DNA of 64,000 nucleotides. It comes from Pseudomonadota bacterium (GTDB lineage Bacteria; Bdellovibrionota; FAC87; UBA2466). Shown here in pieces: positions 8,941-63,374 of the stretch (its first letter is position 1; each line of letters begins with the position of its first letter). Where the stretch lies: NCBI GenBank assembly GCA_009927165.1, contig RFNO01000053.1, positions 16,143-80,142 of the forward strand, given 5' to 3'. Position numbers and translations under genes: made by a program. The notes under the pieces are model-generated. The model did no database searches and had not been told where the DNA came from. It saw nothing but the letters and a program-made list of their open reading frames with translations.

Positions 8941-10250
8941 GTATTTCTCAATGCCTGCTTATTAAAAATGGACGAGTTATTGATCCCAGTCAGAATTTGG
9001 ACGCGATCACCGATATTTTAGTCCGTGATGGGAAAATTGTAGCTATCGGAAAAGCTATCCCTGTACGTCCGGATGAGCCATTGGAATCTCTGGATGTTTC
9101 TGGATTAGTAGTGACCCCAGGTTGGATTGATATTCATACGCATCTTCGAGAGCCTGGCGGAACTCATAAAGAAACTATCGAAACAGGAACTCGTTCCGCT
9201 GCTGCTGGAGGGTTCACGAGTATTGCTTGCATGGCCAACACTCAACCCGTTAATGACAGCTCCTATATTACAACCTACATCCGTCAAAAAGTGTCATCCG
9301 ATTCCCCAGTAAACGTTTTTCCTATTGGCGCAGTCACTAAAGGTCTGAAGGGTGAGGAACTTGCTGAAATCGGTTCTATGCGCGAAGCAGGAATCGTAGC
9401 CATCTCCGACGATGGCAAAACCGTCATGAATGCTTATTTGTTCCGAAAGGCTCTCGATTATTCCCGGCGATTTGATTTGGTAGTCATTAGCCATGCTGAA
9501 GACCTCAATTTAAAAGGAAGAGGAGTCATGAATGAGGGCTTCAATTCTGCTCGATTTGGTTTGAGAGGAATTCCGAAAGCCGCTGAGGAAGTGATTGTCG
9601 CCCGAGATATCTACTTAGCCGAATTGACTGGGGCTCGTCTTCACATTGCTCATGCTAGTACGGCAGGAAGCGTAGCGTTGATTCGTGAAGCCAAGCGCCG
9701 TGGAATTCAAGTTACGGCGGAAGTCACCCCGCACCACCTGACTTTGACGGACGAGGCAGTGGGCCCCTATGATACCAATACGAAAGTCGCACCTCCGTTG
9801 AGAGAAAAAGAGGATATTGAAGCATTACAAGAGGCAGTGGCGGATGGAACAATCGATGCTTTGGCGTCTGACCATGCTCCCCACGCTCGGGAAGAGAAAG
9901 AAGTGGAATACGATCACGCAGAATTTGGTATGGTGGGATTAGAGACAGCTTTTCCTCTCTATTACTCCAAGGTTCTTAAAAACCATTGGGATTTGTCTCA
10001 GTTGGTTTCTGCTATGACTTGGAAGCCAGCACAGATTATCGGTGTGAAAAAAGGAACACTCCAAGTAGGAGCTGATGCTGATATTTCAATTTTTGATCCC
10101 AAGCATGAATGGACTATTGATCGCCAAGCATTTTTGTCAAAGAGCCAGAACTCACCTTTTCATGGCTGGAGTATGACGGGGAAACCCGCTTTTACAATTG
10201 TAGCTGGAAAAGTGATCTATCGTTCGGCCCATTTGAAAGGGAAGAGCTGA
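8937..10250 (+). CDS. pyrC: Dihydroorotase
   Basis: DIHTHLREPG metal-binding motif, DHAPH. 4-nt overlap with pyrB. Confidence 0.85.
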   Translation: MSISQCLLIKNGRVIDPSQNLDAITDILVRDGKIVAIGKAIPVRPDEPLESLDVSGLVVTPGWIDIHTHLREPGGTHKETIETGTRSAAAGGFTSIACMANTQPVNDSSYITTYIRQKVSSDSPVNVFPIGAVTKGLKGEELAEIGSMREAGIVAISDDGKTVMNAYLFRKALDYSRRFDLVVISHAEDLNLKGRGVMNEGFNSARFGLRGIPKAAEEVIVARDIYLAELTGARLHIAHASTAGSVALIREAKRRGIQVTAEVTPHHLTLTDEAVGPYDTNTKVAPPLREKEDIEALQEAVADGTIDALASDHAPHAREEKEVEYDHAEFGMVGLETAFPLYYSKVLKNHWDLSQLVSAMTWKPAQIIGVKKGTLQVGADADISIFDPKHEWTIDRQAFLSKSQNSPFHGWSMTGKPAFTIVAGKVIYRSAHLKGKS

Positions 10251-11371
10251 TGCCTAGTCATGGTTGGAATGCAGCCCTCTACTTAGAAAATGGTCATCTT
10301 TTTCTTGGAAAGGGTTTTGGCGCCAGACAAGCTCGAGGGGGCGAAGCCGTATTTAATACTGGAATGACGGGCTACCAAGAAATATTTTCGGATCCTTCTT
10401 ATTCGCATCAAGTCGTTGTTTTGACGAGCACCCAAGTTGGAAATTACGGGATCAATCCTGAGGATACTGAATCTGAAACTTTGTTATTAAAAGGAGTCGT
10501 TGCCCGGGAATACTTTTCGGAACCCTCCAATTGGAGAGCTCAACAAAACCTGGGAGATTATTTAGAAAAATCTGGAGTTCCCGGTATTTCCGAAGTCGAT
10601 ACTCGGCGAATTACTCAAATTTTGAGGGATGAGGGCGCACAAAGAAGTATTATTTTCCCAATCGAAAAAGAAACACGCACAGAGATCCAAGCGAAAGCCC
10701 AAACCCTCCTGGGCAAGATTCCTGCAATGGAAGGTTTGGAGTTGGTTAGCCAAGTGAGCTGCAAAGTGCCTTGGGAGTTTGATGAGAAAAAAAACAAGTC
10801 TCGTAATACCCTTGGAACCATGGTTGTTTATGATTATGGGGTCAAATGGAATATTCTGAGGAGTTTGTCTGAAAGAGGATTTAAAGTCAGAGTGGTTCCC
10901 TACCAAATGCCCCATCAAGAAGTTTTGAAAGAGAAGCCAGCCGCTGTTTGCTTGTCTAATGGTCCGGGAGATCCCGCTCGTGTACCTTCCGCCATTCACG
11001 AGATTCAAGGGATTTTAGGCAAACTTCCTGTATTAGCCATCTGCATGGGACATCAACTCTTGGCAAGGGCCCTCGGCGGAGAAACTTATAAGCTAAAATT
11101 CGGCCATCATGGAGTAAATCATCCCGTGCAAGAATTAGAGACCGGACGGATTATGATCACTTCTCAAAATCATGGATTTGCAGTAAACGCAGATTCTCTT
11201 CCCCAAAAAGATGTAAAAATCAGTCTAATAAATCTTAATGACCGAACCGTTGAGGGATTTGTATCGACCACATTGCGGTTTTCTAGCATTCAATTCCATC
11301 CCGAAGCCAAACCGGGACCTAGCGATGCTAATTTTCTTTTTGATAATTTTCTTAAGGGGTTCGTAAAATGA
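10250..11371 (+). CDS. carA: Carbamoyl-phosphate synthase small (glutaminase) subunit
   Basis: CPSase small-subunit N-domain plus GATase CMGHQLL catalytic Cys region. Confidence 0.9.
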   Translation: MPSHGWNAALYLENGHLFLGKGFGARQARGGEAVFNTGMTGYQEIFSDPSYSHQVVVLTSTQVGNYGINPEDTESETLLLKGVVAREYFSEPSNWRAQQNLGDYLEKSGVPGISEVDTRRITQILRDEGAQRSIIFPIEKETRTEIQAKAQTLLGKIPAMEGLELVSQVSCKVPWEFDEKKNKSRNTLGTMVVYDYGVKWNILRSLSERGFKVRVVPYQMPHQEVLKEKPAAVCLSNGPGDPARVPSAIHEIQGILGKLPVLAICMGHQLLARALGGETYKLKFGHHGVNHPVQELETGRIMITSQNHGFAVNADSLPQKDVKISLINLNDRTVEGFVSTTLRFSSIQFHPEAKPGPSDANFLFDNFLKGFVK

Positions 11372-20848: not shown

Positions 20849-22267
20849 TTGTTTCTGAACAATTTTTCTAACAATTTCAAGAAAAAGTCGGAGCAATCTG
20901 TGTCTATTCGTCGAATCTTGATTTGCGAAGGTGACTCTCAAATATCCAAAAGATATCGAGAGGTTTTAGAGGGTAATGGGTACTGGGTTCAAGAGAGTCC
21001 AGATATTGCTGAGGCAATCAGGTTGGCTACCAAGCAGACATTTCACCTCTGTCTCTGGGGATATCAGGATAGCGAGGGGTTAAACAAACTCCAAAGTTTT
21101 CGCGCTGAGCGTCCAGGTTGTGCCGTCGTTGTTCTAGGATCGGAAAACAGTCCTTCCTCTATTGTGAACTTGATGAGGGCGGGGGCTTCTGATTTTTGGG
21201 ATTCGAACCAAGAAATAGCCGGATTACTGACCGTTATTGAAGAGAATTTAGGGAGAATTATTTCCACTCCCCCTGATTTGAGCCAAAACGAGTTTTCCAT
21301 TCCCCAATTCGTGGGAAGACATCCTAAGATTCTTGAGATTTTCCAGCTCATTATGAGCATTAAAGATACGGACTCAAATGTACTCATTACCGGAGAGAGC
21401 GGAACTGGAAAAGAAGTCGTGGCCAGAGCTATTCACGATTTGAGCCCGAGAAAAAAACTACCCCTAATTGCCGTTAATTGTGGAGCGATACCGGCAACAC
21501 TTCTGGAAAGTGAGCTCTTCGGCCATATGAAGGGAGCCTTTACTGGGGCAACTCAAAACCGTATTGGGCGTTTTCAATTGGCTGGGCAGGGAACTTTATT
21601 TTTGGACGAAATCAGTGATCTGTCTTTGGATTTACAATCCAAAATTCTAAGAGCTATTCAGCAAAAAGTTTATGAACCTGTGGGAAGTGCTCACAGCCTG
21701 TATCTAAACGCCAGAATCATTGCAGCTTCCAATCAAAATCTTGAGACTGCAGTGGGTGAAAAGAGATTCAGAGAGGATCTTTATTATCGACTAAACGTGA
21801 TTCCTATTAATATCCCACCGCTTCGTGATAGGAAGTCAGATATTCCCCTTCTTGTTAAAGCCTTTACCGACAAATTTGCTAGTCAGTATGCGAGAGAAGT
21901 CACAGGGGTATCTGAAGACTCATTGAGAATTCTGATGCAGTACCATTGGCCAGGAAATATTCGTGAGCTAGAGAACTTAATCGAGCGAGTAGTAATCCTT
22001 AAAAGAGATAAGGGAATCATCGACGTTAAAGACTTGCCTATCGAGCATTTTAAACGGGTTACTTTGGATAGGTATATCAGTAGCGTGTCCCTTCCAGATA
22101 ATGGTTTGGACCTAAATGATGCTATCAACGATTTCGAAAATGAATTAATCATACAGGCACTTCAAAAGACACAGGGCAATAAAAACAAAGCTGCTTATCT
22201 TTTGAACTTGAATAGAACTACTTTAGTAGAGAAGTTAAAGAGAAAAGGTCTCAAACTCGCTTGTTAG
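20849..22267 (+). CDS. Sigma-54-dependent transcriptional activator with a degenerate (non-phosphorylatable) receiver-like N-domain, FleQ/FlrA-like
   Basis: AAA+ sigma-54 interaction motifs [29 protein letters not shown]. Fis-type HTH at the C-terminus. N-domain aligns to REC, but the phospho-acceptor Asp and conserved Lys positions are replaced. Confidence 0.7.
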
Positions 22268-25339: not shown

Positions 25340-27713
25340 CTTTACTTTAAACGTGCACATTAAACTTCGCGTTAATTATTCAGTTCTTTACGTGTTGAGC
25401 TTCGTGTTTGCCCTGTCTGGACGCCCCGCAACAAATTTCTGGGAATTGAAAGATCTGGATCTCCCCATGCCATTTTGTGAAGGGGTGACCAATCTAGAGG
25501 TGGCCCCTACTTATTTCACAGAAATTGAAAATCAATTAGGCGGAACGCCAGAGTACAATGGCTTGATTCAAAGCTATCATCGCAAAGATTGGGAAAAGTT
25601 AGGCAATGAAATTGCAACTTTTCGCAGGGTATTTGAAACTTCACGACTTCAAGAAGCTGTTGATTTTCTGGAACTCCAGGCCCAATTAGACCAAATTCCA
25701 AATTCAGAGCCGAGTCAGATCAAAAAGTTCGAATCAAAGTTTAGAGAGATTTTACTCCTCTATCCCCATTCAACATTGGCACCTGTCCTATCAGCCTCTT
25801 TGGCGAGTTTCTATCTGAAAAATGGATCTTATGCGAAAGCCCTAGGGCTGTATCAAACAGGAAAGCAGGAGTATCCCTTTCACCCCAGCGCCTGTGTTTT
25901 TCTCCTCGGTAGTGCCGAGTCGCAGTATCTTCTTCACAACTACGAAGATGCCAAAAAAGGATTCAGCCAAGTTCTTCAAAAGTGCGATGCGGCTAGATTG
26001 CAAATGGGCTCTCGAATCAGACTCATCGATATCGACAGAGAATCGGGACAAGACCTCAAAAAAATAGAAAAAGCTTACGAGAAGATCCAAGTGAAAAATG
26101 GCCACTTAATTTCCCGATTCCACCCCGAGCTCCTATTCAATTTAGGAGAACTTAAATACCGTCAAGGAAATTATCCAAGCGCCTCCTTCTATTTCAACGA
26201 GTTTACAAAAGTAGAGGAGCATTTTTCCGAATGCCAAGCTCCCCTTCGGAAGCGACTAGCAGACTTGTCGGTAAAACGAAAAGATAAGCTTCCCGCAGTG
26301 ATTGGTAATTATTTAACCGTAAAAGAAAAATTCCCAAAAAGTGATTGGGGACACTTTTCGAAAGCCCACGCCTTGTTGATGGAATTTAAAGATCTGGACT
26401 CAGCTGAAATTGAGAGGCGTTTAACGGTAGTCGATGAAGAGCTGTTAGCAATTAAGGACGAAAAACTTCGTACGGTTGGTAACATAGAAAAGGGGTTATC
26501 CCTTCTTGAAGCAAGCAATGAAGAAGCTCTTGGTTACCTATCTAAATTGAATGAGCAGAATGGCTTTGATTTGAAGCAAGGAGAAGTGGGATCTTTCATT
26601 CGAGTGAACACGTTACAGGTCCTGGAAAAATTAGCTCGAACCCCGTCAACAGTTTCCCAAGCTGAACGAGATGAGAAGTTACTAGCCCCACTTGAGCATT
26701 CCTACAAAGAATGGTTTGAGGGCACACCCATGGCCAAAAAGGCGCAAAACCTTTACCGAGATCTCATCGTGCAGAGCGCTTTGGAAAATCTTGAGCAAAA
26801 AGGGTTGAAAAAGTCATTGGAGAAGTTAGAGCGCTGGCAGACTTCTTCATTATTTAATCAGCAAAAAGTAGAGTTAAGTACTAAAATGAAACTGGGCGAC
26901 TCTCTTGTCCGTTGGTGGTTTAGCGAAACCAATCGAGATGAGAAAAAATCAGCCGAACGTCTGCTCGATAAAAAAGAAGTCATATCTGCTTTGATTAGTC
27001 CGGAGTATGACCCACTCTGGTTACAGACCTACTTAACAGTAGAAAAACCGCTCGAATTAGAAGTGGCTCTTAAGGCCATGGAAAAACAGAGAAGTATTGC
27101 TTCTGCTTTTAAGCCTAAAGATGGCCTAATTTCCTCCTATCTGGCATTGATGATGGGTAGGGCTTTTCGCGAAGCAAAACAATACCAAAAAAGCGAAGAA
27201 TCGCTTTCAAAAATCACTCACCCCAAACTCAGTGCCCTAAAAAGGCTTGAACAAGTAAAAACTTTTTCGAGTGCGGGTCAGTTTGAAAAAGCCCTCAAAA
27301 TTGGTTTGAGAGGATTAGAAAAAGCAGACCTGGCCTCTTCTGGTGCCTATCTGGACTTAATGAAGCGATCCGTACTTGCCGGGAAAAAATGGGGTCTCTC
27401 GGAAGAAGTTTTAAAATCAGCTCAAAAAAAGGGATTAAAGGAAAAAGATTTAGCTCCTTTCTTAGCAATGTCGGCAAGAGCGGAGCTTGAAAAGTCGAAT
27501 TGTTCGCTATCTATTAAGCGTTATGAAGAGGCTATTAAGATTGCCCCTGATTCCCCTGAGAAATTAGAAAACCGTTTCTATCTGGGTAAGTGTCGGAGCA
27601 AAATGAAAGATACCAAAGGGGCCATCAAGGAGTGGAGAGAAATTGCTTCTCAAAAGGACGAGTTTTGGAGTCCGCTTGCTGAAAATGAAATCAAACTATT
27701 GGAGTCGCCATGA
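25335..27713 (+). CDS. Large TPR-repeat protein with N-terminal hydrophobic segment; the true start is probably downstream of the annotated 25335
   Basis: Multiple TPR-like helical repeats ([18 protein letters not shown]...). Stop overlaps the start of the downstream sigma-54 EBP (ATGA). Confidence 0.55.
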
Positions 27714-28660
27714 CAACGCTGAATTTTCATCACCGAAAGATGCTGATTGCTGATGAGTTGATGGAAAAGCTTTTGAAAACGTCTCGGAGAGCAGCAATGG
27801 CCGACTCTTCAGTCCTTCTCTGCGGAGAAAGTGGGACTGGCAAAGAATTAATTGCTCGTTATATCCACGAGATCAGCAACCGAAGGGAAATGCCATTTAT
27901 CAGTGTGAACTGTGCAGCTATTCCGGAGGGACTTATGGAAGCTGAGCTCTTTGGATATGAAAAGGGAGCTTTCACGGGTGCACTAGTACAAAGAATCGGA
28001 AAATTCGAACGGGCCCAAGGTGGAACACTTTTGTTAGATGAAGTCAGTGAAATGTCATTGCCCTTACAGGCCAAGTTGCTTCGGGTTTTGCAGGAATCGG
28101 AAATAGACCGATTAGGTGGTAAGGGGCCTATCCGAATTAACACAAGAATTATCGCAACCACGAACAAAGATCCTTTTGAATTGATCAGTAAAGGGTTGTT
28201 CCGGGAAGATTTATACTATCGCCTAAATGTATTTAGAATTGAATGCCATCCTCTGCGCGAAAGACGGGAAGCCATTAGAAAACTGTCTCAATTTTTTCTG
28301 GAGAATCTGAGGGAGCGATATGAGCTTCTCAATCAGACTTTCAGTGCCGAAGCCTTGGAAAAGTTAGACAAACATTCATGGCCTGGAAATATAAGAGAGT
28401 TGGCAAATGCCATTGAACGGACCGCCTTAATGACAGAAGAGGCACTCATCGGTCCTGAGCATATCAGTTTCTTACGGTCACACCCGCGCCCAGTTGAAAT
28501 GGAAACAGTGAGTGAAGAATCACTAGCTGCGTTGGAGAAAAGGCACATTGAAAAGATGCTGGAGAAGGTCGATGGAAATCGTACGGAAGCAGCCAGGAAA
28601 CTGGGGATAAGTGTAAGGACTCTGAGAAATAAGCTTAAGGAATATCAAGCTCCATCCTGA
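27710..28660 (+). CDS. Sigma-54-dependent transcriptional activator, activator-only (AAA+ plus Fis HTH, no receiver or sensor domain), PspF-like architecture
   Basis: [25 protein letters not shown]. 316 aa, starting directly in the AAA+ domain. C-terminal HTH. Confidence 0.8.
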
Positions 28661-28734: not shown

Positions 28735-28750
28735 TGGCCTTAAGTTTGCA
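28735..28750 (+). promoter_or_regulatory. Sigma-54 promoter TGGCCT-TAAGT-TTGCA upstream of flgB
   Basis: GG-N10-GC spacing and 8/10 core match plus A. 45 nt upstream of the flgB ATG, immediately downstream of the EBP gene. Confidence 0.55.
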
Positions 28751-32750: not shown

Positions 32751-33573
32751 CCAAATAAGGGAACAAGGGGAGTTTGTTCGTTTTCGGGCAGCCGATGTGC
32801 GCACTTTGCCTCAGTTTTCGGAGGCTGTAGCTCAGAAGGCTTCTGCTTGGAGCGGTGAAGTGTCCCAATCAACTGGCGAACATTTTCGTATGGCTGGCGA
32901 GTATTGGGATGGCCTCATGAATGATCCCATGTTCCGAGAGCGTTTTGATGCTTTGGTCGAGAAAGAAGTAAGGTCTCGCCTGTTGAAACGTTTGGAACAT
33001 CATGAAACTGAAGTTTTACCTGAAATTTCAAAAGAAGCCATGAAGCAAGGATATCAAGAGGGAAAAAATTTAGCCCATGAGCAGCTCGAGGAAGAAATCA
33101 ATAAGATCGAACAAAATCTGACTTATACTTGGCAGGAAAAAGTTGGCGAACTAGAGAAAAGCAAAACTGAAGCCTCCGCGCTATTAGATTCTCTTGTTGC
33201 TGAATGGAAAAATCAGCGTGAATCCCTTTTGCACAGCCATGAGCGCGAATGGTGCCAAGCTATGTTGCATCTCATGAAAAGATTCCAGATGGAAAAGAGT
33301 GAGAGTTATGGAAAAGCTCTTGAAATTTGGATGGCTGAAGCGATACCGGAATTTGTAACCAAGAGCCCTGTCACTGTTTGTGTGCCGGACTATGAATGGG
33401 AAAAATACGCCGATTGTCTTGGAAAAAAAGAAAGTGAAGGAAAATGGCATCTGGTGCGAGACTCAAAATTAATGCCTGGACAAATTCGATTTGAAGCTGG
33501 GGCCGGCGGGGCGATTTTCGATTCCGGAAATAATTACCAAAAATTAGTGGATTGGTTGGAAACAATCAGATGA
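32716..33573 (+). CDS. fliH: Flagellar assembly/export protein FliH (start uncertain)
   Basis: Position between fliG and fliI. Coiled-coil. C-terminal ...GGAIFDSGNNYQKLVDWLE resembles the FliH/ATP-synthase-b-like C-domain. Confidence 0.55.
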   Translation: MAWVKSQIWSPDQIREQGEFVRFRAADVRTLPQFSEAVAQKASAWSGEVSQSTGEHFRMAGEYWDGLMNDPMFRERFDALVEKEVRSRLLKRLEHHETEVLPEISKEAMKQGYQEGKNLAHEQLEEEINKIEQNLTYTWQEKVGELEKSKTEASALLDSLVAEWKNQRESLLHSHEREWCQAMLHLMKRFQMEKSESYGKALEIWMAEAIPEFVTKSPVTVCVPDYEWEKYADCLGKKESEGKWHLVRDSKLMPGQIRFEAGAGGAIFDSGNNYQKLVDWLETIR

Positions 33574-34870
33574 ATCTAGAACAATTCTGCAAACAAATCC
33601 GAGATGAGTCGTTTGTAACATTTTGTGGACGTGTGACGAAAGTTAGAAGAGATTCGGTTCGGGTCTTCGTACCTAACGCAAAAGTGGGCTCGGTGGTTAT
33701 GGTTCAGGGGAGACAGAAAGAAATTCCGTTAGAAATCGTTAGTTTAGATCCAGAAGGTCATGTCGCAATGCCTTTGGATGAATTAAACAGTGTTCAGTTA
33801 GGTGACCTCGTTACACTTCGCGAAGAACAAGCAGTTATCCCCGTTGGAAAGGAACTGCTTGGCCAAGTCGTTGATTCACTCTGTAGGCCACTTGAGACAA
33901 ATAGGAAGCTCAATTTACCAGATTCCATTTCGCTTTATGGTGAATACTTAAACCCAATGGATCGAACGATTATTCGGGAACCTATCGACTTGGGCGTGAG
34001 GACAATAAACGCCCTTCTTACTTGTGGTCTTGGCCAAAGAGCAGGAATTTTCGCTGGTTCAGGAGTGGGTAAAAGTGTTCTGTTAGGGATGATGGCTAGA
34101 TTTACTTCTGCAGATGTTGTGGTTGTGGGACTTATCGGAGAACGAGGCAAAGAGGTACGAGAGTTTATAGAGCACGAGTTGGGAGAAGAAGGCAGAAAAA
34201 AAAGTGTGACTGTCGTCGAAACAGCTGAGAAATCTCCCGTCAGGCGTGTCCGTGGAGCATATGTTAGTACTGCTATAGCGGAATATTTTCGAAAACAAGG
34301 TCTACAAGTGTTGCTCTTAATGGATTCTCTTACTCGCTTTGCGATGGCACAGCGAGAAATCGGTATGGCGGCGGGCGAGCCACCCACCAGTAAAGGTTAT
34401 ACGCCTAGTGTATTTTCGGGAATTTCCCGACTGGTTGAGCGTGCGGGAAATTTCGGGGCCGAAGGCAGCATCACTGGTCTTTATACAGTTTTGGTTGAGG
34501 GAGATGACTTAGAGGATCCGGTTGCAGACAGTGCCGGTCAATCTTGGACGGCCACTTGGTATTATCCCGAAAAATAGCAAACAAAGGACAATATCCAGCA
34601 ATCGATATCTTGCAGAGTGTGAGCCGAGTAATGGATCAAGTTACCGAAAAGACTCACTCCACATCGGCACGAAGGGTAAAGCAAATCTTAGCTCGCTTTC
34701 AGGATAACGAAGATGCAATTAACTTAGGTCTCTATAATAGAGGGAGTGACCAGACAATTGACGAAGCGATTGAGAAAGAACCTATTATCCTCGATTTCCT
34801 CAAACAAGGAAGAGACGAGCACTCATCATTTTTTGATTCGAAAAGTAAACTCTTGGAAATTGCTAGATGA
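33552..34870 (+). CDS. fliI: Flagellum-specific ATPase FliI, interrupted by a -1 frameshift near 34533-34537 (reading frame continues in ORF 34544..34870); possible pseudogene or sequencing error
   Basis: Walker A GSGVGKS and Walker B LLLMDSLTRFA in the first ORF. The FliI C-terminus DGHLVLSRKIANKGQYPAIDILQSVSR is in the next frame. A single missing C in gcc(c)gg would restore ...VADSARSILDGH... Confidence 0.8.
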
Positions 34871-55766: not shown

Positions 55767-56699
55767 TTATTCTACAATGGATTCTACCGTCGGATCGGAT
55801 TTATCAAGTGAGTCTGGATCAGAGGACAGACGACGGTTTGCCTTGTCCTGAGGAAATTTAGCGTTTAGCGGAAAAATATAAGACCTAATGGTGCCCAGAA
55901 ATTTGGTCCCTTCGACTTTTTGCCCGTTATAAACTACGTCGCTTCCAACCGAATTCCCTAAAACCACTTTAATTTTTTGGTTTGCGCTAAAAGTAGCTTT
56001 TTCCGAGGGAGCCAGGAAATATTCGATAGGAGGAGCTTCATCAATTACTACTTTAATCCAACTCCTATCCCCAGACGTTACTTCTAGCTTATGGGGTCCA
56101 TTCGATGTTTCAACCGGAGATGTTGGGGGTAACTTCTCTTGGGTAGTTTGCGTAGGTTCTGCGGGTTTTGAATCGGGAACGCTCGCTACTTCACGAATTT
56201 GGTTTGCGTTGTCGGTCGTCTCAGAATTAGTGGTGGGAGTTGCTGTAGCCACTGCTGGAGGTACTGATATCGATTCTTTGCCCACGTTGATGAGCCAAAC
56301 GGAAATTCCCAAAACGACTAATCCGACCAATGAAAAAACAATGGGTTTAAAGTTCAGGGTTCGTGAATTTTGGATGAGTTCTGAGGCGGAGGCCACTGGA
56401 GCTTTAGTCGTCTCAGGTTGAGCCGAGGGAGAGGGTGTTTGGGCAGTTGAAATTACTTGAGGCGTTTGGTCTGTTTCTTTTAAGTATTGTTGATAGGCTT
56501 GTTCAGGATTGATTCCGACGTAGCGAGAATAAGAGACAATAAAGCCTTTAATAAAGGGTTTAGCTGGTAAAGCTTTCCAGTTTCCCTCTTCCATCAATTT
56601 TAAAATAGGGAGCTGAATTTTGGTTATGGCTGCTACTTCTTCCAAACGGATATTCTTCTTTTCTCGCTCGGACTTTAAAAAGTAACCCAAAGTTTGCAT
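55767..56699 (-). CDS. rodZ: Cytoskeleton protein RodZ-like (XRE HTH, TM, Pro/Thr-rich linker, DUF4115-like C-terminus)
   Basis: N-terminal HTH IRLEEVAAITKIQLPILKLMEEGNW, a single TM, and a PT-rich periplasmic linker. Confidence 0.65.
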   Translation of the reverse strand: MQTLGYFLKSEREKKNIRLEEVAAITKIQLPILKLMEEGNWKALPAKPFIKGFIVSYSRYVGINPEQAYQQYLKETDQTPQVISTAQTPSPSAQPETTKAPVASASELIQNSRTLNFKPIVFSLVGLVVLGISVWLINVGKESISVPPAVATATPTTNSETTDNANQIREVASVPDSKPAEPTQTTQEKLPPTSPVETSNGPHKLEVTSGDRSWIKVVIDEAPPIEYFLAPSEKATFSANQKIKVVLGNSVGSDVVYNGQKVEGTKFLGTIRSYIFPLNAKFPQDKANRRLSSDPDSLDKSDPTVESIVE

Positions 56700-56739
56700 G
56701 TTTCTCTTTTATCAGGGGTATTGCCAAAAATGCTAGGTT

Positions 56740-57498
56740 TTACTGGAGGAATTTAAGAACTTCTTGAGAACGGTCCACATAAGGGCCTGTTTTGTGCCTA
56801 GAAACCAGCTTTTCAAATTGATTTTTAGCCATATTCTTCTGACCTGATTTCATCAAAGCCAGTCCCAGTTTATAGTGGCTTTCATCATAAAGCGGGCAGG
56901 TGGCCAAAGCCTTTGAATAGGAGTCTATTGCCTTAGAGAATTTTTTTTCCTTGGCATAAACATCCCCTAAGTTCTTGTTAGCAAGACAGAAGTTAGGAAG
57001 CACATCTAGCGCCCTTTGGTGAAACATTTTCGCTTTGGTTAGGTTACCCAGACGAAAATAAGAGTACCCCAGATTAGTCATGGCATTTTCGGGAGTGCCA
57101 TACTTTTCTGATTTCAGGGCCTTATCAAAATAGGCAATAGCATCAGCAAATCGGTCTTGCCGATTCATCAATACTCCTAGGTTGTTATAAACTTCAGGAT
57201 AAAAAGGAGTAATTTTTAACGCATTTTTAAAAGCTTCCTCTGACTTGGAAAAGCGTTTTGTTTCCATGTAGATAATGCCCAAGTGATTGTAAGCTGCAGC
57301 TAAATTGGGATCAATTTCGATGCTCTGATAACAATACTCGAGAGCTTTGGAAAAATTTCTTTGGGCAAACATATCCGAAGATAACTGCAAGAAGAGTTTA
57401 GCCTTGTCTTTTTCTTTTGTGTTTTCACTCAGATGGCTACAAGCGTTTAAGAGGCCCAGAAGACAAAGGATTAGAGAAACAAATCGGAGTGTTCGCAT
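56740..57498 (-). CDS. TPR-repeat lipoprotein, PilF/PilW-like (type IV pilus assembly) by position upstream of rodZ
   Basis: Lipobox LLNAC; ~6 TPR repeats; ~250 aa; conserved pilF-rodZ synteny known from Proteobacteria. Confidence 0.5.
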   Translation of the reverse strand: MRTLRFVSLILCLLGLLNACSHLSENTKEKDKAKLFLQLSSDMFAQRNFSKALEYCYQSIEIDPNLAAAYNHLGIIYMETKRFSKSEEAFKNALKITPFYPEVYNNLGVLMNRQDRFADAIAYFDKALKSEKYGTPENAMTNLGYSYFRLGNLTKAKMFHQRALDVLPNFCLANKNLGDVYAKEKKFSKAIDSYSKALATCPLYDESHYKLGLALMKSGQKNMAKNQFEKLVSRHKTGPYVDRSQEVLKFLQ

Positions 57499-57623
57499 GT
57501 TCTGAGTATAGCGGACACCTTAGGGGTATTCCACGGGCTTTTGGCAGCCGTGAGGAGCGTTAATGCAACGAGTTAAGTATTTGGCTTGTTTACATTTATG
57601 GTTTTTAAGAAAGGGCAAGCAAG

Positions 57624-59033
57624 CTAACACGCATCTTTAATCGTAAATTTCAAAGATAAGCCGGGCAATTCAATGGTGTCCCCATCAACCAGTTCTACTG
57701 GTCCTAAAATTTTTCGCCTATTCAGAAGAGTAGTTTCAGAGTCTTTTGATACGGCTTCTAACCAAAGCGATGTTTTTCTCCGAAAAATTCTTACGTGTTG
57801 TCCCAGTATTTGATCTTTATCTCCTAAAGAAAAATGGCTCTGAGTGGAACTGCCGATGAGAGTTTCATCCGAATAAAGAAAAAACTCTTTGGGACTTTTT
57901 TCATCAACCAGTTGAAGTCGACCAACTCGGAGAGGGACGCGACATTTTTTGCAATAACCTAACTGGGATTGTGGGTCAGCAAGACCACAGTAATCGCAGA
58001 ATGTACAAGCAGGAGGAAACAGTGTCTTGGGAAGTACCGAAAGTTCTACGGGTGCAATCGCTTTTGAATTACTGAAAGGCCAAAATCCTTTTCTGGTTAA
58101 TTTATTCAGCTCATCTCTAACTGTTTTTGCCCTCTGGTAACGATCCTTAGGGTCTGTTGCTAAACATTTTTTTATAATAGCAGTTAATCTAGGATCTAGG
58201 CTCGTCTTATCGATTTGATTTGCTTCTCCTAACTTTGGAGTTTCTCCCATAGCAATTTCATAAAGAAGTGCCCCGAGGCTATAAATATCTCCTGCCGCAG
58301 TAAATTTAGTTCCTTTCTGAAGAAAGTCCGGAGGAGTGTAACCTTCGGATTCGAAAAGAAGAGGTTCAGTGTCTGAGAGGTGATAGAGAGTTCCGAAGTC
58401 GATGAGCTTAACTCGCGAGCTGATCCCATCAAGCATAACGTTTTGAGGTTTTAGGTCTCGGTAAATGTAACCTTGTTGATGAATTACTTCGAGCGCATCA
58501 GCAATCTCTCTTCCCAAATAAATCAGTAGTCCATCCTCAACAGTGCCTTTGTTTTGCTTTTTGTAATCTTCTACGGCTTTGGTGAGTTCTTTGCCGTTAA
58601 TAAACTCCATAACTAAGTAGAACGACTTATTTCTCTCAAAATATTCGAAGCCTCTTGGGAAAGCAGGGTGTTTTATTTTTCTGAGAAATTTCGCTTCTCT
58701 TTTGAATGCTTTGAGGAGTTGGCTCTTGAACTGATCATAAGAGGCTTGATCAAGCATTTGCTTTATTAATACTGGTTTCTCATTGTCTTTTCTTTGGGCT
58801 CTGAAAGTAGCACCAAATCCGCTCCTAGCAACAGCTTCTTCGATCAAGTACGAAAATTTTGATTTGATTCTTTCGCCTGGAGAGAGCAGTCCTTGTCCTG
58901 CATCTTTTACTGAGTCGAATGAGGTTTGACGAAGCTTTCTGGCAACTTGAACTTGAGATAAGCTTTCACCACAGGACTCGCAAAAGAGGGAGCCCGCCAC
59001 ATTGGTTGTCTGACATGACGGACACTTTTGCAC
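57624..59033 (-). CDS. Hanks-type Ser/Thr protein kinase with N-terminal zinc ribbon, second Cys cluster and C-terminal FHA domain
   Basis: CPSCQ...CESCG zinc ribbon. Kinase motifs YRDLKPQN, DFG, APE-like. C-terminal FHA-like segment (LIGSS...HVRIF...). Confidence 0.75.
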   Translation of the reverse strand: MQKCPSCQTTNVAGSLFCESCGESLSQVQVARKLRQTSFDSVKDAGQGLLSPGERIKSKFSYLIEEAVARSGFGATFRAQRKDNEKPVLIKQMLDQASYDQFKSQLLKAFKREAKFLRKIKHPAFPRGFEYFERNKSFYLVMEFINGKELTKAVEDYKKQNKGTVEDGLLIYLGREIADALEVIHQQGYIYRDLKPQNVMLDGISSRVKLIDFGTLYHLSDTEPLLFESEGYTPPDFLQKGTKFTAAGDIYSLGALLYEIAMGETPKLGEANQIDKTSLDPRLTAIIKKCLATDPKDRYQRAKTVRDELNKLTRKGFWPFSNSKAIAPVELSVLPKTLFPPACTFCDYCGLADPQSQLGYCKKCRVPLRVGRLQLVDEKSPKEFFLYSDETLIGSSTQSHFSLGDKDQILGQHVRIFRRKTSLWLEAVSKDSETTLLNRRKILGPVELVDGDTIELPGLSLKFTIKDAC

Positions 59034-59068
59034 TTCGCAAACCCCTCTTCATTGCCCCGTCACTAAAC

Positions 59069-60307
59069 TTAAATTAGGAGGCGCGTTTTCTTGGCTTCAT
59101 CCTTGATGGTAGCCAAATTATCCGACACCGATTTTCCTTGTTGTAAGTCTTGGGATAATTGCCCAAGAGCTTTAGTTACTTTGGCTTGACCCAGATTTGC
59201 TGCAATCTTAGTTGTGTTTTCAATCAGTCGGGTCGCTTTAGCTTTATCCCCGCTGTCGATACTTGCTTGAATTTGTTCTCCGTTAATGTGAACTTGCAGC
59301 ATTTGTATTGCTCTGAAAACATCCGGATCAATTTGTCCTAAATCTGTCTCGCGATCGGTAGTTTTTACTTTGATAATGGTTTCATCTGATGATTTACCGT
59401 CGTAAACCGCTTTGAGGTTGAATAGGGCTAGTTCACTTCCAACTTGACCGTTTCCTTGATGGCTAGTTTGAACTATAAAAGTGGTCATATCCTTGGTCAT
59501 GGAACCGGTTGAAAGTTCCAAAGATTTTTTATTTCCTGAAATATCATAAATCACAATCTCAGGTGCGACTTTAGCAATTCTCATCACTTTGCAATCGATG
59601 TTGCTAAAGTTGAGGATCAGATTGCCAACCACTGAGGATTGTAGTTTTTGGACTTCTTCTTGCAGTCCTTGTTTGAACTTAGAAAGGTCATTGGCGTGGT
59701 AGTAAGAACCTCTTCCTAGCTCCGATAATTTACTGATAAAGCTAGAATCATAGTCGTCGGCTGATCCGATACCTACTCCAGTTAGAGTAATGTGTTCATG
59801 TTTTCGGACAATTTCTTCAAATCGTTGAGATTCCTCGATACGATATCCCTGATTATCTGTTGGAAAACCATCTGTGAGAAGAATGATATGATTGACTCGT
59901 TTTACTTTGTCGGCGCTGGAGCGGGCATCGAAAGAACCATAAGCTTGTTTTAGTCCAGCCTCTAAATTTGTGACTCCTGAAGGAGAAGCTAAATTAAGTA
60001 TTGCATCTCGCATGACTTGTCGGTTCTGCGAAAGAGACGCTAACGGAAACAATTCCTTGGAACCTGAATCAAAGAGAACAACGCCTACACGATCATCATC
60101 TTTAAGCGAATCGATAATTTCTGCTACAGCTTGTTTTACAGTCGACCATTTGTCGCCCCCCATGGAGCTAGAACCATCTATTAAAAAAACGACATTGGAA
60201 GGTATTCGACCGAGCCCAGAGTCTGGAGTAAGTTCGATTAGAGTAGTTGTACTGTAATCTCCGCTGATAGGTCTTAGATCCGAACCATTCTTAACTGTAA
60301 TTTTCAC
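59069..60307 (-). CDS. Cytoplasmic von Willebrand factor A (VWA) domain protein
   Basis: MIDAS motif VVFLIDGSSSMGG...T...D. No signal peptide. Immediately upstream of the kinase gene on the same strand. Confidence 0.7.
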   Translation of the reverse strand: MKITVKNGSDLRPISGDYSTTTLIELTPDSGLGRIPSNVVFLIDGSSSMGGDKWSTVKQAVAEIIDSLKDDDRVGVVLFDSGSKELFPLASLSQNRQVMRDAILNLASPSGVTNLEAGLKQAYGSFDARSSADKVKRVNHIILLTDGFPTDNQGYRIEESQRFEEIVRKHEHITLTGVGIGSADDYDSSFISKLSELGRGSYYHANDLSKFKQGLQEEVQKLQSSVVGNLILNFSNIDCKVMRIAKVAPEIVIYDISGNKKSLELSTGSMTKDMTTFIVQTSHQGNGQVGSELALFNLKAVYDGKSSDETIIKVKTTDRETDLGQIDPDVFRAIQMLQVHINGEQIQASIDSGDKAKATRLIENTTKIAANLGQAKVTKALGQLSQDLQQGKSVSDNLATIKDEAKKTRLLI

Positions 60308-62167: not shown

Positions 62168-62281
62168 ACGAGTCTCATTATATCGGTATTTTAATGAAAA
62201 AAGGGACGGAAAAGGGCACTAGAAAGGCCCTAATTGGGCTGAAAAGGCCAAGAACGTTTTGAACTCAAGGCTGGCACAGGG

Positions 62282-62297
62282 TGGCCCTTTTCTTGCT
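62282..62297 (+). promoter_or_regulatory. Sigma-54 promoter candidate TGGCCC-TTTTC-TTGCT (preceded by an extra TGGCAC) about 100 nt upstream of the repeat lipoprotein gene
   Basis: 9/10 core match with correct GG-N10-GC spacing in an intergenic region. Confidence 0.35.
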
Positions 62298-62383
62298 GTA
62301 TACTCCCGATGCTGACCCAAAAGGGTTGGCCGGTAGAGCAACTAACCATCATCCCCTAGGGGGAAGATGATAAAGAGGGGATT

Positions 62384-62725
62384 ATGAAAAAGTTTTCAAT
62401 TTATTTGGCCGGATTGTTACTGATAGCGGCTTGTGGCAGTGATAACAATTCGCAGCCTAACCAGAATCAGCCTTATCAAAACCAGCCGTACCAGAACCAG
62501 CCTTATGGGCAAAATCCCTACGGTGGCAACGGGCAAAACCCGTATGGTGGTTATGGACAAAACCCGTATGGTGGTTATGGACAGAATCCTTATGGTGGTT
62601 ATGGACAGAATCCTTATGGTGGTTATGGACAGAATCCTTATGGTGGTTATGGTTACAATCGCCCGGGTTACGGACAGAATCCTTACGGTGGTTATGGTGG
62701 ATATAACCGACCTTACGGTTATTAA
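62384..62725 (+). CDS. Tyr/Gly/Pro/Gln-rich tandem-repeat lipoprotein ((G)QNPYGGY x ~8)
   Basis: Lipobox LIAACGS, then QNQPY x3 and GQNPYGGY repeats encoded by near-perfect 24-nt tandem DNA repeats. Confidence 0.6.
   Translation: MKKFSIYLAGLLLIAACGSDNNSQPNQNQPYQNQPYQNQPYGQNPYGGNGQNPYGGYGQNPYGGYGQNPYGGYGQNPYGGYGQNPYGGYGYNRPGYGQNPYGGYGGYNRPYGY
62507..62700 (+). repeat. Tandem 24-nt coding repeat array (ggacagaatccttatggtggttat and variants, about 7 copies), preceded by 15-nt QNQPY repeats
   Basis: Directly visible near-identical tandem units within the lipoprotein CDS. Confidence 0.8.
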
Positions 62726-62762
62726 GAGCAGTGAGTTCGCAGTTTATAGGGGGCGGTGGGGA

Positions 62763-63374
62763 TCACCCACCGTCCCTTAGCATTTTTTCAGTTTGTACTT
62801 TCTTAGCGTTCAATTCTTCCAAGGTTTTTTTGTGCACTTTTTGTTTCTCCACCCACTGAATCTTTTGGGTGCTTAGAGATTCTTTTCGAGATTTCAGTTG
62901 CTCAAAATTTTTATTGAGCCCCTGCAGTAGACCTTTCACTTTGGCAACTTTTGCTTGTGTTTCTTGAGACCACTTTTGTCGGTCTTGTTGTTCAGTCTGT
63001 GCTCTTTCTTTTTCTGCAGAGGAAACTTCTTTTTTATTTAAATACGACGCCAATGTCTGAAGCGCCTTATTGTTTTTTTCAATTTCCTCGCCTGCTTTTT
63101 TGATGAAGTCATCATACTGGGTTTTTAATTTCAAGTGCTCCTGTTCTAGGGACTCTACCTGTTTGAATTCGTCATCAAGTGTGGCTGCATTTTTTGAAGA
63201 ATTTTCAATATTGGTTTGTGTGTCTTCGATATTTTTCGAAAGAATTTGCAGGTTGTCCTGCAATCTCCTTTTTCCTGCTGCACCTAATTTGGAATCAGTC
63301 GATTCCTCGGCGAGTAGCAAAGTTTGGAAAATTAAATTCAATACCAAAGCAAATAGTATGGGCGTCTTGTTCAT
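62763..63374 (-). CDS. Secreted coiled-coil protein (Skp/OmpH-like periplasmic protein?)
   Basis: Signal peptide MNKTPILFALVLNLIFQTLLLA followed by an all-helical K/E/Q-rich coiled coil. Confidence 0.4.
   Translation of the reverse strand: MNKTPILFALVLNLIFQTLLLAEESTDSKLGAAGKRRLQDNLQILSKNIEDTQTNIENSSKNAATLDDEFKQVESLEQEHLKLKTQYDDFIKKAGEEIEKNNKALQTLASYLNKKEVSSAEKERAQTEQQDRQKWSQETQAKVAKVKGLLQGLNKNFEQLKSRKESLSTQKIQWVEKQKVHKKTLEELNAKKVQTEKMLRDGG

Follow-up and report, generated by a model that had tools for sequence, protein, structure and literature searches.

Towards one end of a 64-kb stretch of contig RFNO01000053.1 (assembly GCA_009927165.1, Bdellovibrionota; hereafter the window) lies a gene encoding a prolipoprotein of 113 aa (62384..62725, + strand, stop codon included; defined by translation of the open reading frame (ORF) and by its orthologues), whose mature part is low-complexity repeat sequence almost throughout and which is preceded by a putative sigma-54-type promoter. 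A lipoprotein pattern of the PROSITE type fits its N-terminus, MKKFSIYLAGLLLIAAC, residue 17 being the predicted lipidated Cys, and this match delimits a signal peptide of residues 1-16 ending in the lipobox IAAC (62384..62434, the Cys17 codon being 62432-62434). The same pattern is matched in all nine lineages in which the gene was located: Lys or Arg is present within the first seven residues (the window protein starts with MKK...), the h-region is uncharged and the lipobox Cys falls between positions 15 and 35, the lipobox itself reading LAAC, VVGC, LASC or LSGC in other lineages. The lipobox proposed in the original prediction, which had been made from the window alone, is thus borne out, and the changes seen in signal peptide and lipobox are mostly synonymous.

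Five residues account for 94% of the mature part of 97 aa (G 27.8%, Y 21.6%, N 16.5%, Q 14.4% and P 13.4%), and its only charged residues are two Arg and one Asp, a G/Y/N/Q/P-rich and charge-poor composition of the prion-like or sticker-and-spacer kind. It had been described as a low-complexity Tyr/Gly/Pro/Gln repeat, which is correct once Asn is added, with about 25% Tyr, which is somewhat too high since the actual value is close to 22%. Two tandem arrays, both on the + strand, were delimited by Tandem Repeats Finder: a 15-nt unit present 3.5 times that encodes QNQPY (62453..62505), and a 24-nt unit present 8.2 times (62503..62697; 80% matches, score 208) that encodes GQNPYGG[Y/N] octapeptides. 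The octapeptides are found as seven in-frame units, of which six are contiguous (62507-62650) and the seventh (62672-62695) follows a GYNRPGY interruption. At the DNA level, the claim that these 24-mers are near-identical holds for four of the seven, three being identical (62579-62650) and one differing by a single base, whereas the other three differ at 3-7 bases. Because all but one of the codon differences between units are synonymous, it is the octapeptide itself, and not just the DNA repeat, that has been preserved.

Homologues, genomic position and length variation

Database searches with the lipoprotein found no Pfam or NCBIfam family and no PDB-sequence relative, the weak sub-threshold NCBIfam matches being to lipoprotein signal-peptide models only, and an Rfam search of the gene and its surroundings returned nothing meaningful. 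A search of 5.8 billion proteins identified one clear homologue group, the rest being compositional look-alikes, and of only four matches that a profile search returned at E < 1e-3 among 1.84 billion representatives, three were compositional. Among the look-alikes, DUF4190 (PF13828) and DUF805-like membrane proteins, a DnaJ protein and P0038-P0040 were rejected as cases of compositional convergence. The Q/P/Y/G-rich tails of the DUF4190, DUF805-like and DnaJ proteins do have QPYGQNPYG-type strings in common with the lipoprotein, but they are transmembrane or cytoplasmic, have no lipobox, belong to other taxa and show no synteny. Tails of this type recur in L089-L101, L096/L098/L106 and P0003-P0014, and such convergent composition is widespread.

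Further lineages were located via neighbour genes and RpoA relatives on environmental contigs, and a Tyr/Gly-rich lipoprotein is present at the same syntenic position in nine lineages altogether, with an RpoA identity of 81-100%. Apart from the window type (113 aa, an identical protein being found on two other environmental contigs), these are L107-L111 (114 aa, with a 106-aa variant in L086), L112/L113 (111 aa), L087 (107 aa), L088 (107 aa), the L001/P0001 group (83-105 aa), L116 (107 aa; RpoA 90% identical), L115 (115 aa; RpoA 83% identical), which has different PGYVAPVQ-type units and extra Cys residues, and L114 (RpoA 81% identical), where the gene is a 68-aa ORF uncalled by the gene finder. 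This last ORF (MRTLFAGIILVITLLLSGCGNSCPTGY...) is found at about 10100..10310 (-) of a 2.98-Mb contig (ERZ25039592 contig_2782) and has its own TGGCCT-N5-TTGCT element. A contig search with the protein encoded next to the lipoprotein in the window, a Slt-type lytic transglycosylase (SLT), returned only distant Bacteroidota SLT domains (32-42% identity) and no relative of the locus.

In each of the nine lineages, the gene is positioned past the rpoA-rplQ end of the ribosomal cluster, after genes for a TlpA-like thiol:disulfide oxidoreductase and a secreted coiled-coil protein of about 200-240 aa. The SLT gene faces it in eight of them, L114 having a ferrochelatase gene there instead. Between members of the six closest lineages, codons 14-22, which span the lipobox and the first mature residues CGSDN, differ almost only synonymously (L107 and L088, for example, by 6 synonymous changes and no non-synonymous one), while comparisons involving L116 reveal 4 non-synonymous changes; the mature N-terminus CGSDN is invariant in seven close lineages. 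Further along the chain, the aromatic fraction is 20-23% in all nine lineages, with K+R ≤ 2 and D+E ≤ 1, despite the use of different units (GQNPYGGY, GQQNPYGGY or PGYVAPVQ), and selection appears to act on composition and sticker density rather than on sequence. The homologues are invariably small lipoproteins (68-115 aa) and not the larger structural gene of which, by an early misgiving, this one could have been a degenerate fragment. On this comparative evidence the gene is real and represents a small, lineage-restricted family. A literature search found no published description of this family, which is undescribed and narrowly distributed, the kinds of protein it falls under (lipoproteins, low-complexity domains) being already known.

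The length of the protein varies between close strains by clean in-frame indels, in agreement with an earlier proposal that the number of repeats can change. In the L001/P0001 lineage, eight alleles (83, 86, 92, 95, 96, 98, 100 and 105 aa) with identical flanks differ solely by their count of QQNPYGGYG and GYG units, and between L001 and L082 the DNA differs at a single substituted base and by an indel of 30 nt that cleanly keeps the frame. L086 (106 aa) and L107 (114 aa) differ by a 24-nt in-frame indel and also by scattered, mostly third-position substitutions, and must therefore be distinct strains rather than one mis-assembled sequence. The type of unit is itself lineage-specific (the 8-aa GQNPYGGY here, the 9-aa GQQNPYGGY in others), which indicates turnover and homogenisation of the repeat units. 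Since the units are multiples of three, this is length variation and not on/off phase variation; a contingency (phase-variable) locus was considered and rejected, because units of 24, 27 or 30 nt, with observed indels that leave the reading frame intact, result in a length polymorphism of 83-114 aa.

Promoter, transcript leader and neighbouring genes

The putative promoter (62282..62303, +) comprises a -24 element TGGCCC and a -12 element TTGCT (62282-62297), followed by a conserved extension GTATAC (62298-62303). Its core, TGGCCCTTTTCTTGCT (62282..62297), lies 102 nt upstream of the ATG, has GG and GC 10 nt apart and shows one mismatch (A to C) to TGGCAC-N5-TTGCW. That a sigma-54 element is found some 100 nt upstream of the gene had been part of the original prediction, and it has gained a phylogenetic footprint over nine lineages, all of which have TGGCC[C/T]-N5-TTGCT 57-90 nt upstream of the start codon. 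In seven lineages TGGCCCTnTTCTTGCTGnATAC is invariant inside a diverged spacer (20 of the 22 block positions are invariant), and when five lineages are aligned over the whole spacer, the sole invariant blocks are TGGCCCTnTTCTTGCTGnATAC, the Shine-Dalgarno (SD)/start region GAGGGGAnTATGAAAAAG and the opposite-strand TATAAT of the SLT gene. In the distant L115 and L114, flanks, spacer and downstream extension have all changed, but TGGCC[C/T]-N5-TTGCT has been kept, 57-69 nt upstream of the start. With the base composition of the window, the chance of such a match is ~6e-5 per 200-nt spacer. Survival of just the sigma-54-critical bases at the exact spacing is what would be predicted for a -24/-12 promoter and argues against a generic operator, and the sigma-54 reading of TGGCCC-N5-TTGCT is strongly supported by this pattern of conservation.

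Upstream of the lipoprotein gene no sigma-70-like site was found, and interpreting the conserved block itself as a sigma-70 promoter was rejected, since there is no -35/-10 pair and TATACT is replaced by AATACA, AAACAC or TTATAT in other lineages. An extra TGGCAC that had been pointed out just upstream does exist (62272-62277), but it lacks a -12 partner and does not recur in any other lineage, and was rejected as a promoter element.

TGGCCY-N5-TTGCW occurs twice in the window, against 0.17 expected. The other copy, TGGCCTTAAGTTTGCA (28735..28750, +), has the form of a sigma-54 -24/-12 element and precedes by 45 nt the flgB gene (from 28795), which heads flgB-flgC-fliE-fliF-fliG directly downstream of a gene for an FlbD-like activator. 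The unusual C in the -24 hexamer is common to the candidate promoters of flgB and the lipoprotein gene. Two enhancer-binding ATPases with a GAFTGA motif are encoded in the window, an NtrC-type response regulator (20849..22267, +; GAFTGA at aa 229) and the FlbD-like activator, which is receiver-less (27710..28660; GAFTGA at aa 86). The NtrC-type response regulator is a candidate activator of the lipoprotein promoter and, judging from the promoter sequences, co-regulation of the lipoprotein with flagellar genes is plausible.

Canonical sigma-54 promoter geometry puts the transcription start ~12 nt past the -12 GC, which would correspond here to 62308 (+) and to a leader of ~75 nt, with a minimum free energy (MFE) of -29.7 kcal/mol (z = -2.3). 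Hairpin 1, GCUGACCC-AAAA-GGGUUGGC (62311..62330, +), is seen in both MFE and centroid folds ~3 nt after the predicted start, and a second predicted hairpin, CAUC-A-UCCCC UAG GGGGA-A-GAUG (62347..62369, +), ends 5 nt before the SD sequence GAGGGG (62375..62380, +). The latter was assigned by conservation, since five lineages, once aligned, have GAGGGGA-N-TATGAAAAAG without any change. For each of the nine lineages, folding of the leader predicts a hairpin near the 5' end, with a sequence that varies; the close lineages all fold as two hairpins with stems that differ by clade (CAUCC.. versus GCGCU..), the distance from the end of a hairpin to GAGGGG is 3-5 nt in six lineages, and the z-scores of the folds range from -1.2 to -2.7. 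When the leaders were aligned with MAFFT and folded jointly by RNAalifold, the two hairpins did not appear: the SD was paired with the 5' arm of hairpin 2, no compensatory pairs were found, and no formal test of covariation was passed. The evidence from these folding models for structural conservation of the leader is suggestive, and the structure could stabilise the mRNA or gate translation. In the window (62347..62383) as in the orthologous leaders, the 3' arm of hairpin 2 is itself SD-like (GGAG/GGGG), its 5' arm (CCCC/CCUUU) might form an alternative pairing with the real SD and the leader contains two GGA motifs ~12-18 nt apart; a translational switch or a CsrA-type site is an idea only. 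At the other end of the transcription unit, a 14-bp G+C-rich stem-loop followed by a T-run (62747..62789, +) constitutes an intrinsic terminator that is common to the convergent gene downstream.

That convergent gene (62763..63374, -) encodes the secreted coiled-coil protein, which is 203 aa long in the window, has no family match and is represented by only six clusters among the 5.8 billion proteins. It is always adjacent and convergent to the lipoprotein gene, L114 and L115 included (232-239 aa there), and may be a functional partner of the lipoprotein. On the other side, the SLT gene (-) has a likelier start at ATG 62152 (551 aa, as on other contigs) than at TTG 62167 and displays a perfect minus-strand TATAAT at 62177-62182 that is invariant in five lineages. 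Since there is a TATAAT on the SLT side, the two divergent genes use different promoter types. Beside the SLT gene, the region 55767..60307 (-) encodes RodZ-like helix-turn-helix, TPR, Ser/Thr kinase (with FHA) and VWA-domain proteins, a cluster that is syntenic in most of the related contigs reaching that far. Elsewhere in the window, fliI is split into overlapping frames (33552..34870, +), the first of which (33552..34577) corresponds to residues ~1-329 and the second (34544..34870) to the C-terminal part. This is indicative of a frameshift near 34540-34577, which may be due to an assembly error or mark a pseudogene.

Proposed mode of action and its alternatives

AlphaFold2 models of the lipoprotein have a mean pLDDT of 45.6 and a pTM of 0.12, with no secondary structure past the signal helix, and the mature chain is predicted, on moderate evidence, to be intrinsically disordered. 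A scenario can be outlined in which an enhancer-binding ATPase opens the sigma-54 promoter, giving rise to a monocistronic unit of ~480 nt whose structured leader precedes the prolipoprotein gene. Sec export, lipidation of Cys17 and removal of the signal peptide would then leave a nearly uncharged, disordered chain of 97 aa tethered to an envelope membrane. We infer both the membrane and the leaflet; with Gly at +2, the former would be the outer membrane if the +2 rule of E. coli also applied to this taxon. With a Tyr every 3-5 residues and Gly, Gln, Asn and Pro in between, the chain would be a sticker-and-spacer polymer whose multivalent, Tyr-mediated self-association or adhesion might build up a cohesive layer, a gel or a condensate, either periplasmic or at the cell surface. 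In-frame gain or loss of repeats would tune the number of stickers, i.e. the valency, and expression would be switched together with other sigma-54-controlled envelope functions, possibly including the flagellar genes. Taken as a whole, a sigma-54-controlled, envelope-tethered, self-associating low-complexity lipoprotein has, in our estimation, a probability of about 50%; the physiological role of the protein is a guess, held with much less confidence. A bolder version, which is doubtful, sees in the lipoprotein a lipid-anchored, pure prion-like or FG-like envelope polymer that would form, through its whole mature chain, a condensate, hydrogel or amyloid-like layer switched by sigma-54 and tuned in each strain by the number of Tyr stickers. 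The main scenario fits what has been published on bacteria, in which prion-like domains occur preferentially in proteins of the envelope (PMC4606120) and extracytoplasmic condensates have been shown for CsgF (PMC10133297) and the lipoprotein LbpB (PMC11022072).

Several points weigh against this scenario. In the promoter, a C replaces the consensus A of the -24 hexamer, and matches with at most one mismatch are by count not above chance in the window (3 versus 2.1 expected), the significance of the element coming from its conservation across lineages. There is no rpoN in the 64-kb window, the sole region in which it could be looked for, and no non-trivial dyad of at least 6 nt was found as an upstream activating sequence (UAS) of the lipoprotein gene. 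The UAS of sigma-54 promoters is usually a dyad about 80-150 bp upstream; the search revealed a partly conserved GGGC..GCCC-N5-GGGC stretch at 62214-62240. The differences in copy number could partly be short-read assembly artefacts, the array being about as long as a read, and a low pLDDT obtained from a 9-sequence alignment is weak evidence for disorder. Self-association is proposed by analogy to eukaryotic low-complexity domains, not by homology, and Pro-/Gly-rich chains may remain soluble and serve only as spacers.

Among alternative explanations, the lipoprotein might be associated with the flagellum or motility, for instance as a structural component of a sheath or ring or as a basal-body accessory rather than as a general self-associating layer, the FlbD-like activator switching it on with the flgB operon. 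The unusual -24 variant TGGCC[C/T] upstream of flgB, right after the FlbD-like gene, fits such a role, and so does the divergent neighbour, some flagellar systems being known to recruit Slt-type lytic transglycosylases. Nevertheless, the gene is separated from the flagellar cluster by ~33 kb and is linked instead, across lineages, to the rplQ-rpoA end of the ribosomal genes, the protein has no similarity to any known flagellar lipoprotein, the SLT adjacency has been lost in L114 while lipoprotein and promoter are still there, and one base variant common to two promoters is weak evidence for a common activator, which together make a flagellar role rather unlikely. The chain could also be passive, i.e. 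a disordered tether, entropic brush, spacer, stress protectant or probe of the peptidoglycan mesh that would not self-associate. This is consistent with its predicted disorder, with a high Gly and Pro content that disfavours folding and with the presence of a lytic transglycosylase and a TlpA-like periplasmic oxidoreductase in the neighbourhood, and there is a precedent in B. subtilis RsgI and PBP1, whose extracytoplasmic disordered regions sense peptidoglycan gaps (PMC9732909). However, the 20-23% of aromatics and near-zero charge retained over nine lineages with different repeats are not needed by an inert hydrophilic spacer and make this explanation unlikely too. Hydrophilins and brushes are usually charged or Ser/Thr-rich.

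It had also been speculated that the protein serves in adhesion or predation, and a surface adhesive or a covalently cross-linked (dityrosine or DOPA-type) attachment matrix would be in keeping with Tyr-rich Gly/Pro repeats that recall resilin and mussel-type materials, and with the invariant CGSDN mature N-terminus of the seven close lineages, which could be a sorting signal. The conserved neighbourhood, however, contains no peroxidase, tyrosinase or surface-export genes, and both surface exposure and a predatory lifestyle are without evidence, so that an adhesive matrix is improbable. Even less probable is that the conserved 22-nt block is an operator for another regulator or part of a promoter for another sigma factor: its single consensus mismatch, the failure to detect a UAS and an invariant TGnATAC extension downstream of the -12 element, which the sigma-54 consensus does not explain, would be accounted for, but two distant lineages keep only TGGCC...TTGCT at the exact spacing while spacer and extension change, no -35/-10 pair fits and activator genes are present. 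Finally, low-complexity tandem DNA can open reading frames, and the L114 orthologue escaped the gene finder, as might be expected of a spurious ORF on a DNA minisatellite or of a decayed fragment of a larger gene. This explanation is effectively refuted by the retention of start, SD, signal peptide, lipobox and stop in nine lineages with mostly synonymous substitutions, by homologues that are all complete small lipoproteins and by the unit having a promoter and terminator of its own. Ideas of a precursor of a ribosomally synthesised and post-translationally modified peptide, or of a curli-like system, were dropped as no partner genes were found.

Relation to known systems and significance

The nearest likeness of the mature lipoprotein is to the low-complexity domains of the FET proteins (FUS, EWS and TAF15, with their [G/S]Y[G/S]Q motifs), to the PQGGYQQYN repeats of Sup35 and to the PHGGGWGQ octarepeat of PrP. 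In common with these, it is uncharged and G/Q/N/Y-rich (a composition discussed in PMC4606120), has regularly spaced aromatics in tandem units of 8-9 aa, is predicted to be disordered and varies in its number of repeats. Unlike these, with which it has no detectable homology, it is bacterial, exported, lipid-anchored and richer in Pro, and its low-complexity region is the entire mature protein with no folded partner domain. The GLFG nucleoporins and the N-terminal PGAYPG repeats of galectin-3 offer a similar arrangement of aromatic stickers, uncharged N/Q/G/P spacers and a tether at one end, although in the GLFG nucleoporins the aromatic residue is Phe instead of Tyr and the cellular context is unrelated. 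The orthologue in L115, which is built of PGYVAPVQPGY units, resembles the galectin-3 type.

Closer in location are CsgF (PMC10133297), LbpB (PMC11022072) and RsgI/PBP1 (PMC9732909), in which disordered regions do work in an extracytoplasmic setting and of which LbpB is also a lipoprotein. The regions concerned (an anionic domain in the case of LbpB) are however charged or Phe-dependent, are carried by folded domains and belong to known pathways, whereas here a neutral Tyr-rich repeat stands alone. LptM (YifL) and other very small disordered lipoproteins are comparable in that their mature part is small and disordered, but the composition differs and the mature motif of LptM is absent. Membership of the LptM family (NF047847) was rejected, since the window protein gives no match to its signal-peptide/mature-start model and the distant orthologues stay below the cut-off of 27.7 bits, with scores of 18.4 and 14 that come from the signal peptide only. 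Functional amyloid subunits (curli CsgA/B, Fap, TasA) were rejected as well, there being no Pfam or NCBIfam match and the neighbours being SLT, coiled-coil, TlpA-like and ribosomal genes. As for the promoter, the spacing of GG and GC, the envelope gene it precedes, the GAFTGA activators and the sibling flgB promoter are all reminiscent of sigma-54 promoters of envelope and flagellar genes (TGGCAC-N5-TTGCW), from which both candidate promoters of this organism depart by the C for A in their -24 hexamer (TGGCCC).

If the chain is only a passive spacer, it would be an ordinary orphan lipoprotein. Sigma-54 regulons centre on the cell exterior, lipoproteins and flagella included (PMC3162934), and the present promoter, backed by comparison between lineages, is a further clean case in favour of such a role of sigma-54, while documenting in an uncultured lineage a TGGCC[C/T] variant of the -24 element that is common to a flagellar operon. 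The family also provides a natural allelic series of repeat numbers (83-114 aa) on a type of chain that is uncharged, lipid-anchored and 97 residues long in the window. Should the condensate reading be true, the protein would be a membrane-tethered extracytoplasmic scaffold without any folded domain, in an uncultured clade; and should it self-associate, few natural systems would be simpler for the study of how low-complexity domains behave outside the cytoplasm.

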